Notes: generated by a model from the sequence alone, not told the origin. A DNA stretch of 64,000 bases from Vermamoeba vermiformis (GCA_045837725.1 JBEWZL010000236.1:1-64000), one strand, 5' to 3'. Counted from the first letter of the stretch, positions 22,051 through 39,270 are shown. Numbers and translations are program-made.

Positions 22051-23321
22051 CTATTTTTGACCGTACATCTCATCAATGATTTGATCCATTGTTTTTTGTT
22101 CGACGCGAATAGTGCCGTGAATCTCACCAATGATGCGATCCATGTCGTTTTGCAGCACCATGTTGGGACCGGCATTGAACTTATTGTTGCGCACTCGATT
22201 AAGTAAGTCCTCTTCTTCGCCATTCAAGTAGTTGTCTCCGAGGGGCAGCGACGATAAGGTGTGATTAAAACTCAAGTTCTCTTCGATGTACCGCCAATCC
22301 GCTACATCTCGACAGCCAATACTGTTCTTGGACACGTCAAGCACTCTCAACCCAATGTTGTTTCTCATCGCGACTATTAACTCAGTGAAGCCATCAATAG
22401 TGATGTTGTTGCGTTGAAGAGCTAAGTGCAATAGTGTCGTGTTTCGTTTCAAAGCCTCACCTAGCATGTGACAGCCTTTATCACCGAGGTAATTGCCATC
22501 GACCAAGCCCGGCATGCAACCAACTTGTAGCGTCCTTAAGACCGTGTTGTGGCACAATAGATCAGCCAACATTCTCGCACCGCCTGGGTAGATATTGTTC
22601 GAGTTCAAGCTGAGTGACGTCACTGACGGGTGATAGCGCAGAGCTCCACAAAGGTGATCCACTCCGATGTCAGTTACCGCGTTGTTATCGAGATCGATTG
22701 TCCGCAATGAGTTGTTGTGTTTGATCGCCTCGCTCAACACACGTACACCCTCATCGCCAATTTGATCACGTGACAATGAGAGAGACTTGATAGTGCTGCT
22801 GGCCCGCACAAAATCAGCGAGGGTTTGCATAAAGGGCAGTTGTTGCGCTATTGCGCTTATTGAGCCTAAATTTAGGTCTTCAATGGTGTGGCTGGATTTC
22901 AACGCTTCAATAATTGGCAGCATATTGCACGTAGGACTGAATTTTAATTGGAAGTTCAGTATCCTAATCGATCTGTTTTGTCTTAACGCATCCGCCAATA
23001 ATTGAACTTGTTCTTGTTGGTGCAAAAACAAACTGGTGTACGAAGTAATAGACGTGCTTGCTTTTAGGGCATCGGCAAGAACTCGGAACTGATCTACCTC
23101 TTCAGCTCTGCCATAATAAACTGAGTCGAAGTTGATTGTAGCCAAACCGTTGTCGATTAGAAACGGTTGTTTAGCTAACATCGCCTTATGTATTTCTTCC
23201 ACTGATTTTAGAATCTACGAACGAGGCCGGATTAGTATTTTAAGCAAGGTTTCTGATCGCATCCTTGAGGGTTGCGATATTGTTTAGAATAATTTGCTAA
23301 CAAACTTACTGGTAGAGCCAT
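22051..23321 (-). CDS. RI-type (NLRC3/RanGAP-like) leucine-rich-repeat protein
   Basis: Repeats of about 28 aa (LxxLxLxxNxIGDxGxxxLxEALKxN). A 12-nt first exon (MALP) begins at 23321. Confidence 0.85.
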
Positions 23322-24511: not shown

Positions 24512-26596
24512 TTAAGCTTTATTTGACTTTGAATCGGGAGCTTCTAATGGAATTACAGTGTCTAATTTGCCTTGTCGCTCATCTTCAGTCAATAATTTGC
24601 GCTTGGCTTCTTGCATGCGCTTTTGAGCCATTTCTTCTTGTTGTGCGATCAAATTCGGGTCAGACATCATTTGCTTGAGGGGCGGGTACAACGAGAACGC
24701 AATATCTTGATGTTTTTGTCCTTCAATAGTCAAACCGAGCTCCGTCAATGCAGTGCTCAAGTTCAAATGCGCAGCCCAGTGATTGGGGTCAACAGCGATT
24801 GCTTTCTTGAAGCACGACACTGCCTCGCGCGTCTTGTTGACGTTGGCTAAGCAAATTCCTGGAATAAAATTGTCAGCCTATGCACGCTAGTTGTTGACGA
24901 GTTGTCGTGCTTACCGAGCTGTACATATCCATCAGTCAATGTAGGATCGATTTTAAGTGCCTTAGTTAAATAGCCCATGGCATCCATGTGCTTGTCACCT
25001 TCGTGGTAAATGACGCCAAGTTGATAATAAGCCGTGGCATCGTTCGGTTCAAACTCAATGGCGTCTTTCAGGATTGCAATCGCCTCGTCTGATCTGCCCT
25101 GTCTGTGACGCAAGTTCGCCAGAGCTTTAAACGCGTAGTTGTTGTATTGAAGTTCACCTTGCATTTGAATAATAGTCCGCTTGGCTTTGGGTGCGTTGTA
25201 CGTGCCCGATGCGACCATTGATTCTTTCTTCTTCTTGGCCAGGTCCAATGCCTCGAGGAACAATATTTCAGCGGCCCTTTCATTGCCCTGCTCCAGTTGC
25301 AGCATGCCCACATTGACACGTGCCTCAATCATCTCAGGGTCTTGTTCCAATGCGCGTCTGTACATCATCATGGCTTCTTGCGAGACTTGACGCGGCTGTG
25401 TGGGATCACTACTGGCAGCTGTTAACTGTTCGTAGGCCTCACCAATGAAGACCATCAAACGAGGGTTCTCAGGGAATCGGTCAAGTCCTTGGTTCAACAC
25501 TTCCAAACCTGCTTCTGAATTTCTTGACTTGTTGTTGGCCATCGCGAGATTGACGTAGACATTGACCAAATCATCGGCAGTGAGTCCGTACTTTGATTTC
25601 ATATCTGCATCGGATATTTGTTTATCTTGCGCCAAGACGTTGACGGCGAGTTGATAGTGATAGACTGCATCGCTCCACTTGTGACTGAGCTGATAGAGGT
25701 TGCCGAGGTTGTTGTGTGCTTGCAAGTTGTTGCTGTTGATTGAAATCGCGCGCTCTAATAGTGCCTTGGCCTCGTCATTCTTGTTCAACTGTGCCATCAC
25801 CATGCCCAGCTGGTTGTAGGCTCGATCGTGCTGCGGATCCAACAGGAGTGCTTTCTCTAATGCCTTTTGAGCGGCCTCTAAATCATTGACGGCGTGAAGG
25901 GCGTATCCGAGGGCGAAGTAAGTCTCAGCCAAGTCGCCGTGCACTGAAGTACGGTCGTTCTCGTTGGTGGCATCAATGGCACGACGGTAATACTCAATGC
26001 AGTCCTTGTACTTCTCAATCATCAATAATCCGTCGCCAATTTTCTTCAATGTGTCGATCTTCTCGTTGAGTGGCATTGACTCTTCGGATTTGACGCGTGC
26101 AATGAGTTGTTCGAGGGCAGGACGTGTCAATGAAGTTCTGGAATTGAATGCAGCTGAAGAGAGGTAGCGTGCACAAGAATAGCTTGTAGGTATCTTGTTA
26201 TGTAGAACAATCTGCACTCGATGAGTAACTAGCATTCGGAAACTCAGTTCTTACCTTTTGGGTTGATCCAGATCCGAATCCAGCAAACATTGATTTTCGA
26301 TCCTTCTCTGCGTTAAATATTAGTATATTATATTTGAATATTTTCACGTACGTTTAGAATAGCTACGAAGGCTTTGTAAGGTTACATTGTGGCCGATCGC
26401 ATTCTAAAAATTAACCAGTCATTAGAAGGCGACAGAATATTATGGCAGTCTCTTATAATTTTATATTAATATTTATTCGCCCAATTATAATTAAATATAG
26501 TATTAGCCAAGGCGATCTGGCACTTACCTTCCCCTTTGTGATGTTAGCAGTGACTCGACAAACCGAGCTCAGTAATTTTTTAGAACTATGAAGCAT
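24512..26596 (-). CDS. Multi-TPR protein with presequence-like N-terminus
   Basis: Many 34-aa TPR units (AYNQLGMV..EAKALLERAISIN; AYYQLGVIY..ALKIDP). The 5' exon boundaries are less certain. Confidence 0.82.
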
Positions 26597-32025: not shown

Positions 32026-33303
32026 ATGAAAGTCATCATAGTAAGTGCAGTACTTTTTGTACTCGTGGCTGTTTCAAACGCGTTAACGTAAGTTACAACA
32101 AATCCAGCGCAATTGCGTTGCTTTTTCTTTCAGAGTAATATAAGAAAATCAACTTCGCAATTCTATTATCTTACACCTATTTAATACCTTGCTACGATTT
32201 GTACTAACAAACAAACATGTACAGAGCAACTCAAATAACTCAAGTGGTCAGCGCCCACAACGCGGAAAGAGCGTTAGTTGGCCTCGGACCAGTTACTTAT
32301 AATACATCTATCGAGCGTAAGTACAATTGCTGATTAATTTGGAATTTTTTCGAACCGTAACAATACCAACGAATTGATCCGAAACAGAGACCGCTCAAAG
32401 TTATGTTAATGGCTGCCCTTCTGGTCATAGTGGTACTGCAGATTTAGGCGAGAATATTTATTGGGGCTCTTCTCAAGATCTAACCTCAGCTGTCCAATTA
32501 TGGTCCTCTGGTGAGTGTCAATTCTTTTTATCCTGCGAGCACCATAATTAACCTGGTGGCGACAGAAAAACAATACTGGGACTGCGCGACCAATCAGTGC
32601 TGCAAGAGCGGTCAATGTAGTTGGAGCTATTGTGGCCATTACACGCAAGTTGTCTGGTACTCAAGCACGCAGATCGGTTGCGGTAAGTCCGGCCAGAGCG
32701 AAATTTTTTTTGATGAGGTCAAGCAATAACGCGATTCTTCAGGCATCAAGCTTTGCGGCAGTTCGTACACGGTTATCTGCAACTACTAGTAAGTACCGGA
32801 GTTGTGTTTGGGTTCTCAGGTTCTTATTAACTCTGTGTAGTCGTCCAGGTAATTTCAACTGCAATCCGTTCTGCAACCCGCAAGTGGCTCAATGTCCGAG
32901 TACACCTGTCGCGGCACCCAAAGCTACTCCCGTGGCAGCCCCTGTCTCACCACCACGTGCCACACCTGTTGCGACACCAGTGGCCCCTCCTCGCGCCACA
33001 CCAGTCGCTGCTCCTAAAGCCGTGCCTGTTGCCGCACCTGTCGCACCACCGCGTGCTACACCTGTCGCCTCTCCCAAGTCCGCCCCTGTTGCCACCCCTC
33101 GCGCAGCACCTGTTGCAGTAACTCCCACCGACAGTGGCGCAGTCCCTCAATCCGATGCTCCTGTTGACAGCACTGCCCCTCACAGCACGAGCACTCCTAG
33201 CGCTGGAAAGACGAACGGCCCTCAAGCTGCTGGTTCACTCACCAGTGGCTCGCCGCAACTAGTCAGCAGTGCTGTTGCCATCATACTGTTCGCATTATTG
33301 TAA
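32026..33303 (+). CDS. Secreted CAP/SCP/PR-1 domain protein with Pro/Ala/Thr stalk and GPI-like C-terminal signal
   Basis: Signal peptide; motifs HNAER, GENIYW, CGHYTQVVW and VICNY; hydrophobic C-terminus VSSAVAIILFALL. Confidence 0.9.
32905..33120 (+). repeat. Degenerate coding tandem repeat (PVAxP / PPRATPV units)
   Basis: PVAAPKATPVAAPVSPPRATPVATPVAPPRATPVAAPKAVPVAAPVAPPRATPVASPK; a mucin/AGP-like stalk. Confidence 0.8.
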
Positions 33304-33437
33304 AACATCTGTACATTAAACTTACTGCGATCTCCTCGGTCATTTTGTCCAAAAATGGAAGAAACAATTGCGCGTGGTCGGAGATTTTGTTCGTCCGTTG
33401 ATATACTTACCCAGACGTATACAACACCACAACAAAC

Positions 33438-34526
33438 ATGCTTACTCGTCAATTAGTTAACTTGAGCCGCAAGGGTAGCAGATTCTACTCTACCGGCACC
33501 AATCTCCTCACCAAGCCCTTGACTTTGCGTAATGTGAGCAAAGAAGGCAAGATTACTTCTGACCAACTCTTCAAAGGAAAGAAGGTATGGATACATCATA
33601 GTTGAGAGACGAAAATTATGTAGATATTTGGATGGAGAACTTTTTCTACAAGCAAAGTTTTCAAAATAATTTCTGCTCCAGAAATTACCCTCTTAATTTG
33701 TTAGATACTACGTGGAGCAATTTATAATTCATCACGATTTTTTTCAATTTTTTTCATTTTATTCTAACTTTAATTTACCTTCCCTTTCTATTATCATCCA
33801 TTAATTAACGCTTTTAAGGTTGTTGTTGTTGGTCTCCCCGGAGCCTTCACTCCTGTCTGCACTTCTGGTCACGTAAGTGTCGTTTTCATTCTCTCATGAG
33901 TTGGCTGCGATCCATTTGAGATTCTGTTGAGAGGGAGGATAGGACTATAAGAAAACGGCATAAAAATATTCATATATTTGCGTGTTTAGAACGTATAAAC
34001 GTCTTTTTGACGTCGATCCGTGACACGAGATTTCTTCATTCAGCCTGTACCTAGTAGTATTAATACTGAGATAATATACAGGTCCCCGGATACCTCAAGT
34101 TGGCCAATGAGTTCAAGAACAAGGGCATTGACAAGGTCGCTGTTGTCTCCGTGAATGATCACCACGTCATGAAGGCTTGGGGCGAACAACTCAAAGTGAA
34201 CGACGCTGTAAGTCACGCAATTATATTACTAATATTTAGTTATTATACTAATCGCGTACGCAGCTCGAATTGATCGCTGATCAAGACGGTGCATTCACTC
34301 GTCAAGTCGGTCAAGAAGTGGATCTCACTGAAGCTGGTCTTGGCAAGCGCTCCAAGAGGTACGCCATAATATATTATAGTAGTATGATTGTCATGACTCA
34401 CGAGTACTATCACTCCGCAGATACGCCATGTTGGTCGACAACGGTGTAGTCAAGAAGGTGTTCGTTGAAGAGAGCCCGGGCAAATTGTCTGTTTCCGCTG
34501 CTGAAGAGATGTTGAAGAACCTGTAA
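33438..34526 (+). CDS. PRDX5: Peroxiredoxin-5/type II peroxiredoxin, likely mitochondrial
   Basis: Motifs [40 protein letters not shown] and LGKRSKRYAMLVDNGVVK, with a presequence. Only the peroxidatic Cys is present. Confidence 0.93.
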
Positions 34527-34660
34527 GGTGAACCAATCATTTCGTTTTCTTTAAAATTTAAAAACTAGCCGTTTTTTTTTTGCCGCCTTTTCTTCTTTAT
34601 TCCGAGCTTTTTTTTCATTCCGACTTTCAGAGAGCAACAACAAACACAAACACAACACAA

Positions 34661-35857
34661 ATGGTATGTCGTGCGACCTTACTACTCCAAACCTTCTAAA
34701 GATTTTATAGCCACGCTTTGCTGCGTTGCTCATCGGGGTGTCTGCATTTGACGAACCTGATGTTTTCCCTCCTTTACCTGGCGTTACAAACGACTTAGAA
34801 ATTATGAAAACGTTGGAAGAATACGGATTTGAGGTGCAGTCGTATTTGAATCTACCCAAGAAGCAAATCTTGCAGAAGATCGAAAACTATGACGGAGAAG
34901 TATTGGAAACCTTCGTACTCTACTTTAGTACCCATGGTACATCAAAGGGGAACATGGGGTACTTAATCCCACGAGATGCTCGGGGTGGAAAGAAAAACAA
35001 CGTCGTTCTAGACACCGCCATCTCAGCAACAGAAATCATGGATTCTCTTGCTGGCATTAAAGCAAAGCGAAAGCTTTTGCTTTTGGATACTTGTCATTCT
35101 GGTGGCTTTTTTAAACTCAAGAACATTTCCAAGGCTCCCAACCAACTGGGTAAATCCGGATTAAATTCTTTCATCGAGCGAGCCAGCGAGCAGAATTTCG
35201 GGCAAGGAAGAGGATTGGCCGTAATTTCTGCGGCGCGCAACGGCGAGGCCGCAGTTTGCGAAGACGATGGCAGCGTTTTCACGAAGAGATTCGTCGAGAC
35301 ACTCCGTTCAATTCCAAAAGATCAGATCATGCTCTTCACCCTAGTAAAAAAGCTACAAAAGGCTATGGAGAATGATGCACATATGCCAGTATTTAAGTGC
35401 GACAATGTCACCGAAGTCTACGCTTGGCTAATTGCCCGTAACCCAAACTTTGCTCAAATTACAGTGCAGGAGGAGCATAAGGAAGCAGCAGATGCTACTC
35501 CAACTGCACCAACATTAAAGCGAAAGCGCTCAGAATTTGAAGACAATGAGAAGCCTCCCCACAAAAAGAGCAAAACAGAGGCTGCGTAAGTGAATCCGCT
35601 GGACGAATTATTCTAATTATTTTGATAGTTGCTTGCACAAGAATGCCGTAACTAAGAAGTCTTATACTGAGCGTAATCCAGGAAAATACTTTCGTAAATG
35701 TCCAGATTGCAATCACTTTGAGTGGCGCTGCCCTGAATTGTCTGATAAATCAAAAGATCAGCTTAAGAGCTTGTGCCAAGAGATGAATCTTAAGCGAAGT
35801 GGTACGAAAGCCGAATTGCGCGATCGTATTCTTGTCTCTTACAAAAACGCGATGTAG
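34661..35857 (+). CDS. Caspase-family (peptidase C14, metacaspase/orthocaspase-like) protease fused to a GRF zinc finger and a SAP domain
   Basis: ATG-only first exon. Protease motifs ALLIGV, LPGVTND, YFSTHG and LLLDTCHSG. NLS KRKR-x11-KKSK. A 43-nt GT-AG intron (35586-35628) splices in frame to CLH..NPGKYFRKCPDCNHFEW (GRF) and QLKSLCQEMNLKRSGTKAELRDRI (SAP). Confidence 0.85.
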
Positions 35858-36013
35858 TCTTAAGTGACTACTGCAATTCTGTTGTTTAACAAGATTTTTA
35901 ACTTATATACAACCACGTGTCACCGTGAAATTAATTAAACAAAAAGAGCAGTCGCGGCACTCAGACCCCGATTAAATATGACTGATGTATCTATTCTCAG
36001 AGTGGCTCGTGCA

Positions 36014-37270
36014 TTAATTGAACGCGAGTTCTTCTTCGAGTGCCTTGAAATCAGCCTCTTCTTCAGCTTGTTGCTTTGATCTTTGCGCGGGTTGGGCTTG
36101 AGGCACCTTCAAGTCGGGCACTAGCGCGATGTTATTAGTCATGTAATTCAACGAGCAACACTGGCGAGTACTTACATTGTGCGGCACGAGCGTCCAATTG
36201 CGAGAGCTCGGCATCGAGTTTCTCTTGTTCCAATGCGTCTAACTCAGCATTCAACTCGTCCTGTTGCACAAATACACGTTAGTAACACGCTTTAAAATCG
36301 TGCATCGGATTTTTGAGTTAAATTTATGCTTGGATCGCATGAAAGACGCGATACATTCGAGCATGTAAATTGGTTGAATAATTGTAAGGCTATAGCAGCC
36401 CATAGTGCTACTCAAGTGTATTAATACTAGCACGTACCTCATCGAAATCAGCGCCAAGAGGTTGAGCAATAGCGTTGCCGATCTCGTCAGCAATGTCCAT
36501 TTGTTCGCGAATGTCTTCCATTGTGTCTTCAACATCTTCAATTGTCGTGCGAAGGAATTAAGGAATATAAAGCGGTGGTAATAATAATGAATTAATTAAT
36601 CAGATTAGAAAATTTCAAGATCGCCCTCGAAATTGAAAACAAAAATTAAAATGGCAAGTAAAGATAGTATAAGAAGGATATATTGTTCTGCTAATGTTCT
36701 TCAATGCATTGGCACCAGTCTTCATCGCGTCCAAAGCGGCATAATTCGTGGTTGCATTTTCAATTGTCATAATCTGAACTTCAATGGTCATTCTGGCTCC
36801 TGATAATTTTTCGACTTGTCCTTCGTATATTTTTTTCCTCTTAAGAGCCATCAAAGCCGCTAATAATTGAAAACATGAGTATTAGTCTTGCAACACGGAT
36901 TAACGAGGCACTTCTTAATTTTCCAAAAAACGGTAAGAACAGCGGTTAGTAAATTTATTACAGCCGTAATATTATATACCAGGCCCGAATAATGCATTGT
37001 CGCTATAATGAAGAGAAATCGATGGAAAATTTGCGAAAAATTGAAATTTTGCGAATCAGGACAATTTTAATTTGCTTCCAATATTAAATAATACGTACCT
37101 CGTCGGTTTTTAGACGATGCTAATTTTCTGGCTTGGTCTAATTCTGTAACAATTTTCTTTTCAAGGTATTTTTCTCGTTTTTCAAGCATATCCAACGTTT
37201 CTCGGAGCTTTTGAATGCTCTCCGAGGGAGGAGGAGCTTGCTTAGCTTTACCAAACAATTTGTTCATCAT
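36014..37270 (-). CDS. SNF7: ESCRT-III subunit Snf7/Vps32/CHMP4
   Basis: Motifs MNKLFGK..ESIQKLRETLDMLEKRE, ALMALKRKKIYE, MEDIREQMDIADEIGNAIAQPLG, and acidic C-terminus FKALEEELAFN. Confidence 0.93.
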
Positions 37271-37446
37271 GGGATAATATATATAATTATATACAGCTGT
37301 GTTAGACCTCTGGTGGTCGTTTAATTAAAAAGTTTGAAAAAAACTCTAGCCAAACAACAAACGAAGCACGTCAAAACGAACACAAAAGAAGACTACTAGT
37401 TTATAAGACTAGTTAGAAGCATATTTGCCACTTTTGTATTCTCCAG

Positions 37447-39270
37447 ATGGAAAAGCAGAAGCAAAATCTGGCAGAATCCAATGGCGAAAGGGTGCAATGC
37501 TCAATATGCACAAAGCCATTTGTACGGCCGTCAGAAAAAAAATCGGTGGTTGGTCCTTCGTGTATGCAGTAATTTTAAGTCGGCATTATAATTTACAATT
37601 AATTTTTGCGTCGGATCATGTATTCTTTTGGAAATTTGAACTAACAATGCGCCTAAACGTGCAAAATATTCAAAAATAAATATACTAATGATATATTGCT
37701 TGTTCTATAGCACCCTCGGTCTTGAAAAAGGGCATGAAGAAGTCTGGATCTGAAGCTTTTGTTCTCATTGACACCTCGACGGACCCGCAGAAAATTGACC
37801 TTAAACAATGCTATAAGACAGGTACGAGATATTGTATTGATATTTTTTAGCTAATTAGTTTTCGCAGGTGACTGGCAAGGACACACCAATGCGAAGATCG
37901 AGTTCATTGATCGGCTGGACCACTTAGTCGCAGCAAAACAGACCGAATGCTTATGTCACGATTGTTTGCATTTATTAGTGCACGCACTTGATGCTGAGAG
38001 CGATTATTTGGAGAATCAGATCAGCTCCTATTCAAAGTCCAACCAGATCTTGCAAAATGAAGAGATTATAGATACTGACTTTAGTACTGCCGATGCCTCG
38101 AATGAGGTACTATTATATACTGCCTATTATATCAAAATTTAGCTAATAAGAATTAAATAGTTGGTGGATGCACTCTCGGCAGAGTTGCGCGAATTAATTT
38201 TAGAGCACGAGACCGTGCAGAATCAATTGAACGAAGTAGATGATGAGTCCAATCAACTACAGCTGCAATTAGATGCGTATGTGGCTGCAATACTAATTGA
38301 CTAGGTAATTCTAATGACTTTTTATTGTTGGATGTAGCTATTGGAACGATTACAACGAGATGATGCGCGAGGTCGAAGAATATCAACAAGAGATAGATGG
38401 CCATAGTGTTAAAATAGAAGACATGCAGCAAGAGATCTCGCTGCTCAAGACCAAGCACGTGTACCAAGAAGTATTCAACATCAATCTCGAGGGTCCTATT
38501 GGCTCTATTAATGGCTTTAGAATGGGCAGTCTCACCAAAGAAAAAGTAAGAAATTCTTCGAAAGAAATTGTTCTCTACAACAGAATCGATTTGCTGATCT
38601 ACTTCCAACAGGTTGAGTGGCGAGAAATGAACGCTAGTTTTGGTCGTGCAGCACTGCTGTTGTGGCAGATGATTGAATTCACCAAGAAAACTGACGATCC
38701 AATCGTGTCGCAGTACCGCATCGTGCCGAAAGAGTCATTGTCTTATATTTGGGACAAGCCGAACAACAAAGAATATCCGCTGTAAGTCTATTTCTTGAAT
38801 TAATATGAGTGCTACTATAATGTTAACAACACGTACTTCAGATGCAATGAAGGCGAGTTTTCAGCGTGGTACTTGTTGTCCGACAGCAACTTCGATATTG
38901 CACTCTCGTTGTTGCTGCAGTGCCTGAAGAATGTGAGTGATTGGGCCTCGCGCAACGATCAAGTGAATGTGCCGCACAGGTACGTAGTGATAACCAATCG
39001 GATAATCAGTTCCGTCATCAAGTACTAACGCGTGACTCACAAGGGTGGAAAAAGATAAGATTTATACAATTATTGACGGAAAAGAAGAAGGGCTCTCGAT
39101 AAAATTTAGATCAAATTCGTATGGTAAGTGAATATATAAATCTTTGATTACGTCGGCTAACGGATTTGGTTCCGGCAGAGAAATGGACCGCGGCGTTGAA
39201 ATGCATGCTGGCAAATTTAAAGCACTTATTACTGTGGTTTGAAAAGAAAAACAAAATATCAACATCTTAA
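37447..39270 (+). CDS. ATG6: Beclin/Atg6/Vps30
   Basis: CxxC pairs and a coiled coil, then VYQEVFNI..GPIGSINGFRMG..VEWREMNASFGRAALLL, NFDIAL..LQCL and EKWTAALKCMLANLKHLL (BARA domain). Confidence 0.85.

Follow-up and report, generated by a model that had tools for sequence, protein, structure and literature searches.

In a 64,000-nucleotide (nt) stretch of the Vermamoeba vermiformis genome (GCA_045837725.1 JBEWZL010000236.1:1-64000; hereafter the window, to which all coordinates refer), a three-exon gene on the + strand at 34661-35857 is predicted to encode a protease of the caspase family (C14) that continues into a basic linker resembling a nuclear localization signal (NLS), a zinc finger and a SAP domain. 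The reading we prefer, which we hold tentatively, is that this 368-residue protein is a nuclear-targeted C14 protease of bacterial descent that is held on DNA by its finger-SAP module and triggered by conflict or stress. Two metagenomic homologues, P0013 and P0028, contain the protease, the basic linker, the finger and a SAP-like helix pair in a single unbroken frame. The combination of protease, NLS, finger and SAP is apparently rare and undescribed; our search of the literature, which did not extend to supplements, found no paper pairing a caspase-family domain with a GRF or SAP domain.

Gene model and domain architecture

The spliced coding sequence measures 1107 nt, or 368 codons, is divisible by three and has no internal stops. 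Exon 1 (34661..34663, +) consists of the ATG only, with A at -3, G at +4 and GTATGT directly 3' of it. Intron 1 (34664..34710, +; 47 nt, GTATGT...TAG) is predicted from signals like those of neighbouring introns that were verified by RNA. This one-codon exon is the best start, because a start at Met32 would lose the first strand of the fold and because the N-termini of the homologues, M-x(5-7)-ALLLG, agree with that of the spliced window protein, M-PRFAALLIG; Met32 is the first in-frame ATG of exon 2. Intron 2 (35586..35628, +; 43 nt, GTAAGT...CTAAT...TAG), also predicted, has its CTAAT branch at 35613-17, 12 nt upstream of the closing TAG, and the TAA at 35587-89 that appears to end the long open reading frame (ORF) falls within the GTAAGT donor at 35586-91. 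The first-pass annotation of this DNA had proposed both the false stop within the donor and the in-frame join, across a 43-nt intron with a CTAAT branch, to a second ORF, and at the level of sequence the open frame of the spliced gene bears out both. Its ORF starts, 34726 and 35633, differed by a few bases from the exon starts at 34711 and 35629, which is of no consequence.

Among the introns of the neighbouring genes, seven have their joints confirmed by RNA; the six of GT-AG type have a GTAAGT or GTACGT donor, a CTAAT or CTAAC branch and a YAG acceptor, and both proposed introns fit this pattern; the shortest verified neighbour is 55 nt long versus the 43 and 47 nt proposed in the protease gene. 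From the one-frame homologues P0013 and P0028, which give the join its chief backing, together with this local similarity of splice signals, we infer that exons 2 and 3 are joined across intron 2. Because both homologues hold the same order in one frame, the finger-SAP fusion appears to be a conserved protein and not a chance pair of adjacent ORFs.

The complete C14 domain and the linker are encoded by exon 2 (34711..35585, +; protein P0001), so the catalytic core is intronless, as had been noted. Peptidase_C14 (Pfam PF00656) matched P0001 with an E-value (E) of 4.7e-22 and 79.2 bits against a cut-off of 21.4, over 231 contiguous residues (4-234; 34720-35412) aligned to profile positions 3-229 of 233. 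The match starts at exon 2 residue 4, ahead of which exon 1 adds nothing but the Met, and there is neither a type I prodomain nor a type II p20-p10 linker. The His-Cys dyad that the first-pass annotation had seen is intact. The catalytic His codon (STHG; 34933..34935, +) and Cys codon (DTCHSG; 35092..35094, +) specify H75 and C128, both nearly invariant in an alignment of 69 sequences in which D126 is invariant; across a six-member family alignment D, C and H are all invariant. The LPGVTND motif, which had been called metacaspase-like, is indeed encoded in exon 2; being a general C14 feature, it gives no argument for membership of the metacaspases.

Profile and structure databases placed the domain in more detail. 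The best NCBIfam model was NF047832, 'caspase, EACC1-associated type' (E 6e-20, positions 2-208 of 211), with a score of 71.6 bits that is under the 140-bit cut-off of that model. PADLOC returned its generic 'caspase' model only (E 5.1e-8). Structures of metacaspases and paracaspases exist in the PDB; a phmmer search of all PDB chains with P0001 matched none of them at E<=10 and gave three matches in that range, 'ancestral caspase-6' (E 0.04), 'ancestral effector caspase-3/6/7' (E 0.7) and an unrelated carbamoyltransferase. A D-x-CHSG motif leads one to expect specificity for the basic residues Arg and Lys. Orthocaspases, for their part, cleave after basic residues according to PMC6426788.

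Between the protease and the tail lies the bipartite basic stretch KRKR-x11-KKSK (35518..35574, +), which had been described as an NLS separating the modules and which is NLS-like by sequence when set against the consensus of a bipartite nuclear-import signal. All six aligned family members have a counterpart at the same place, an acidic segment flanked by two basic ones, and this conserved composition fits a functional bipartite nuclear signal.

Exon 3 (35629..35857, +; protein P0002; stop TAG at 35855-57) encodes the finger and the SAP domain. The latter (35738..35833, +) was recognized by PF02037 with E 2.1e-8 and 34 bits against a cut-off of 23.9; the canonical SAP motif claimed for this tail is thus real, and both C14 and SAP stand above their Pfam cut-offs. 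A model of the tail that used the two relatives as alignment reached a predicted local distance difference test score (pLDDT) of 89.3 and a predicted template modelling score of 0.73. It shows three strands followed by a helix-extended-helix arrangement, the SAP helices being predicted at tail residues 42-51 and 60-74. In a Foldseek search the helical part of this model matched the SAP domains of DEK, MKL1, Hcc-1 and 3'hExo with a probability of 0.97-1.0, every E at least 0.28, and a root-mean-square deviation of 0.7-2.4 over 35-41 columns. VIA-align of the tail gave the SAP domains of MKL1, Hcc-1, SLX4, PIAS1, Ku70 and FAN1, with Z 5.4 (best) and 5.2. The match lists of both fold searches, made with the whole tail model, were filled by SAP domains.

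The finger (35630..35725, +) is a CHCC zinc ribbon that reads C-x-H ... NPGKYF..C-x2-C..FEW and is, from its sequence, probably GRF-like. The CHCC part of the original description, a 'CHCC GRF-type finger', therefore stands; its GRF part remains below threshold, Zn_ribbon_GRF (PF06839) scoring E 0.16 and 12.5 bits, well under the cut-off of 25.9. The same model gave a sub-threshold E of 0.023 (15.2 bits) for the finger of P0028, and PF23549 matched weakly at the same place, with E 0.0064 (P0013, 16.7 bits) and E 0.017. The central motif is NPGKYF in the window protein, NPGRYF, with the eponymous G-R-Y-F, in P0028, and NPGMRF in P0013. In a language-model atlas the nearest named neighbours were GRF clusters, at 0.85 and 0.84, values below the 0.9 mark that serve as a lead only. 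With the Zf-GRF proteins APE2, NEIL3 and TOP3A the finger appears to share the CHCC ligands, N-P-G-[KR]-x-F, the trailing F-x-W, three predicted strands and a C-terminal position on an enzyme. It differs from them in its second knuckle, C-x2-C versus a longer loop in the Pfam model (28 residues matched versus 34 profile positions), and in being fused to a protease instead of a nuclease, glycosylase or topoisomerase.

A small family with bacterial relatives

We scanned 1.84 billion representative proteins exhaustively with HMMER and obtained 5047 matches at E<=1e-3, 46 at <=1e-10 and none at <=1e-30. The top matches (P0012, P0013, P0014/P0163, P0015/P0164 and P0028) are metagenomic proteins on JGI/IMG contigs of 1.3-3 kb and are 29-38% identical to the query over the matched stretches. 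In alignment A2 the identity of P0013 and P0028 to exon 2 is 32% and 27%, and over the stretches matched by phmmer it is 37% and 29%; their tails share with that of the window protein 14 invariant positions, including C1, N-P-G, F and C-x2-C. A motif scan found the finger motif in two of the 150 matches listed, and a search with the tail profile found only P0013 and P0028 among 1067 word-index candidates, which were longer proteins. The family profile matched four of 7182 word-index candidates and, like the tail profile, revealed neither further members nor any protein with a name; exon 2 matched nine of 1371, of which the three with names are bacterial, and no named eukaryotic relative turned up in any of these word-index searches. 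A metagenome scan kept 80 loci, with a family member only in L001, the contig of P0012, and tblastn detected no paralogue of the protease gene within the window. Judged by sequence, then, the family is tiny, and the order protease-linker-finger-SAP is neither common nor annotated among the collections searched. The first-pass annotation had allowed that this architecture might prove to be a common annotated family; in those collections only P0013 and P0028 share the tail.

P0012 itself is a complete 514-codon ORF in L001 (1-1586) with a long K/S/E-rich linker, a degenerate C-C-H...C-x2-C finger and no SAP. Together with P0163 and P0164 it forms a sister sub-clade of the family that is marked by a K/S/E-rich linker of ~200 residues.

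Outside the family, the relatives that carry names are all bacterial (Pseudomonas, Caldilineaceae, Sorangium, Crocosphaera, Campylobacterota, Rectinemataceae and Methylocella); organism names were looked up for 30 proteins, most of which carry none, and none of the names found is eukaryotic. We built a quick maximum-likelihood tree of 69 rows comprising the window protein, its family and hand-picked listed matches of ~520 residues or fewer, which excluded longer multidomain matches and had no canonical metacaspase outgroup. Eight family rows and the fragment P0060 formed one clade with a Shimodaira-Hasegawa-like approximate likelihood-ratio (SH-aLRT) value of 97. Its sister was a four-row group (support 88), one cluster of which is named as a protein from a metagenome-assembled genome of Campylobacterota. 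The phylogeny that had been proposed as a check thus places the family as one clade among bacterial caspase-family proteins. The earlier impression of a bacterial-looking p10 region is supported in the form of a bacterial affinity of the catalytic domain, seen in NF047832 and in the named nearest relatives. On these sequence comparisons, the catalytic domain descends from bacterial 'caspase family' proteases.

The closest catalytic relatives outside the family are bacterial conflict-system caspases of the NF047832 type, which in bacteria are fused to adaptors or sensors of immunity (TIR, EAD1, EACC1-linked). C-terminal to the protease, the bacterial relatives carry TIR (P0035), EAD1 (P0006), DUF4384 (P0128) or nothing, so that the family looks like a conflict-system caspase whose accessory module has been exchanged for the NLS and finger-SAP. 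Common to the window protein and the bacterial enzymes are the His-Cys dyad, D-x-C-H-S-G, P-x-F-x-C and the presence of a C-terminal accessory module. In contrast to them, the window protein has no EACC1, TIR, EAD1 or sensor NTPase, its accessory module being the finger and SAP, and it is encoded by a eukaryotic gene with introns, an NLS-like linker and housekeeping neighbours. EACC1-linked caspase-like proteases are described in bioRxiv 2025.11.14.688446 as antiphage proteins activated by fused sensors. If the family descends from such enzymes, it would be a new case of a bacterial immune component reused by a eukaryote.

Metacaspase-like proteases and orthocaspases (C14B) likewise are C14 proteins in which no metacaspase-type prodomain or long linker is recognisable. 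Only orthocaspases among them carry extra C-terminal domains, eukaryotic metacaspase-like proteases consisting of p20 only, as stated in a 2017 review (PMC5756287). The window protein, unlike those eukaryotic enzymes, has two extra C-terminal domains, and the family is an exception to that statement.

The gene itself looks native. Its GC content (0.448), GC at third codon positions (0.466) and codon-use correlation (0.49) all fall inside the spread shown by 16 further long ORFs in the window. We rejected recent transfer or contamination on the strength of this native composition and codon use and of the introns; for the same reasons, any transfer must be old. A scan of viral contigs yielded 39 pattern matches and no relatives among them, so that collection lends no support to an origin from giant viruses.

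Proposed function and competing explanations

We infer nuclear import, DNA binding, activation, the class of substrates and the biological role as follows. The basic linker would import the protein into the nucleus, where the finger-SAP module would hold it on DNA, GRF-type fingers presumably preferring single strands and SAP duplex DNA or chromatin. Crowding on DNA could then activate or focus the protease, expected from its D-x-C-H-S-G motif to cut after Arg or Lys, and lead to cleavage of DNA-bound proteins. The role would be triggered by conflict or stress and not be one of housekeeping repair; foreign or abnormal DNA and mobile elements are candidate triggers, and cell death is a possible outcome. 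We favour conflict or stress over the housekeeping repair of crosslinks because of the defence-type ancestry, the rarity and fast evolution of the family, and the lack of signal in relatives of the source organism.

SAP domains bind DNA or chromatin. For the finger, the closest guide is the Zf-GRF of APE2, which according to PMC5861430 binds single-stranded but not double-stranded DNA via its G-R pair and also binds PCNA. Caspase-family proteases can be compared with the window protein in how they are switched on, too. Death folds, STAND NTPases, calcium and partner sensors are examples of the adaptor platforms through which they are normally activated. If our reading is true, the direct fusion of a protease to DNA-binding modules and a nuclear signal would represent a new mode of caspase-family control. 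Were it activated by DNA, it would offer a simple one-protein model of proximity-driven caspase activation and possibly a cysteine-protease counterpart of the DNA-dependent metalloproteases.

Several observations weigh against this interpretation. The GRF match is under the Pfam threshold in the window protein, P0013 and P0028 alike; P0013 has G-M where GRF has the G-R pair; and the finger folded alone gave a low-confidence model (pLDDT 63.9). PDB sequence searches found no GRF chain, the tail profile returning weak SAP matches and chance rows and the finger alone nothing. DNA binding is not guaranteed, because SAP and GRF domains also make protein contacts. The neighbouring genes (Redoxin, Snf7, APG6) are of the housekeeping kind, with no evident partner or effector gene. 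Finally, no indexed RNA run covers the gene (34400-36000), and we aligned to 33300-37300 three RNA-sequencing (RNA-seq) runs of one related organism and the spliced contigs X1. Over 34640-35845 RNA depth was zero in nine of nine bins in all four of these runs of relatives, versus up to ~100x in the neighbours, and the reads across the 35585/35629 junction that the first-pass annotation had proposed as a check were absent from the four. The relatives are ~1-5% divergent in the flanks, and their RNA has no bearing on expression in the source organism. Zero depth in them is compatible with absence of the gene at this site, with its silence or with a divergence of >10%.

The architecture can also be read as that of a DNA-protein crosslink or repair protease, a cysteine analogue of SPRTN/Wss1 in which the finger (single-stranded DNA) and SAP (double-stranded DNA) would read the junctions of stalled forks or lesions and license the degradation of trapped proteins. 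SPRTN and Wss1 are SprT zinc metalloproteases that are joined to DNA-binding regions and act in the nucleus, and SPRTN depends on two such regions. The likeness would lie in the proposed logic only, a nuclear protease with DNA-binding regions; catalytic class and fold are unrelated, a cysteine C14 protease in the window versus a SprT zinc metalloprotease with HExxH. GRF fingers do occur in APE2, NEIL3 and TOP3, as PMC5861430 and PMC9561275 report, the modelled tail resembles the SAP domains of SLX4, FAN1 and Ku70, and the NLS-like linker is conserved in the family, all of which speaks for repair. Core repair factors are usually widespread, however, whereas this family is nearly absent from ~15 billion proteins. 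Its ancestry lies among defence-type bacterial caspases, and RNA of close relatives gave no coverage of the gene. Moreover, neither exon showed similarity to SprT or another repair protease in Pfam at E<=1, and a literature search linking the GRF zinc finger, SprT and DNA-protein crosslinks found nothing. We therefore regard a dedicated repair function as unlikely.

Stronger in its claim than our preferred reading, and quite unlikely in our estimate, is the notion that a captured prokaryotic defence-type caspase has become a single-chain nuclear DNA sensor and executioner that needs neither adaptor nor NTPase. Its finger-SAP module would detect DNA that is foreign or abnormal, for example damaged DNA or the intermediates of viral or transposon replication, and clustering on that DNA would activate the protease, which would destroy DNA-bound proteins of invader or host or trigger cell death.

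It is more doubtful that the protein is a constitutive, chromatin-anchored processing protease that trims nuclear proteins such as histones or cohesin-like substrates and has no DNA-triggered switch. The intact catalytic dyad and the conserved NLS-like linker agree with such a role, as would the resemblance of the modelled SAP to the SAP of DEK bound to nucleosomes, but a constitutive function is hard to square with so rare and patchy a family and with zero RNA depth in relatives.

Least probable is that the tail lies outside the product, intron 2 being retained and translation of a C14 domain with a basic tail ending at the TAA at 35587-89, or that the gene is a silent or decaying strain-specific relic: the junction has no RNA support in the runs of relatives, the two introns, at 43 and 47 nt, fall short of even the shortest verified neighbour and the relatives diverge abruptly at 35904, but the spliced frame of 1107 nt is free of stops, exon 3 retains the full set of 14 tail positions that are invariant in P0013 and P0028, the catalytic residues are intact, the splice signals are canonical for the genome, and two distant homologues show the same domain order in one frame.

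The locus and its neighbours

The protease gene lies between a Redoxin/peroxiredoxin-type gene (33434-34527, +), whose stop is 134 nt upstream of it, and a convergent gene for Snf7 of ESCRT-III (35904-37324, -), with 156 nt between the two stops; an APG6/Beclin BARA-domain gene follows at 38318-38785 (+). RNA of the relatives covers the flanking Redoxin and Snf7 genes and is spliced there. Many differences from the window are fixed in the three RNA-seq runs over these flanks, and X1 has 13 differing letters in 1088 aligned.

Running leftwards, similarity to the relatives breaks at 35904, where reads of X7 and X8 and the X1 contig continue with loose ends that are unlike the window but identical in letters to one another. 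A 20-mer from this loose end is absent from the window at <=3 mismatches, so a plain junction of the two flanks does not lie inside the 30 letters of the loose end. The change at 35904, close beside the protease gene, may mark an indel or the boundary of a presence/absence difference, which we take as a lead only to an accessory or lineage-specific gene. The 3' untranslated region of Snf7 in the related organism is a patchwork, like the window at 35904-35952 and unlike it on both sides (including 35952-36014); in X1, the closer relative, the match extends as far as 35904, beyond which come the same unlike letters as in X7 and X8. A search for the borders of a mobile element yielded one weak AT-rich inverted pair (34547-64 / 35895-912, 78% complementary), which we judged to be due to chance, and Rfam gave no matches on the whole window.

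The Snf7 gene contains a U12-type AT-AC intron at 36547-36681 (-), with the 5' site ATATCCTT and the branch TTCCTTAAT, whose joint 36546/36682 was seen in three RNA runs. Since this intron is spliced in RNA, the organism has a minor spliceosome.

Elsewhere in the window, two ORFs on the minus strand (22057-23214 and 24853-26250) have LRR_6 and many TPR matches; repeat proteins of the LRR/TPR type are sometimes part of sensing systems. The GC content, on average 0.425 over the window, rises locally to 0.53-0.60 with negative GC skew at 32600-33400.

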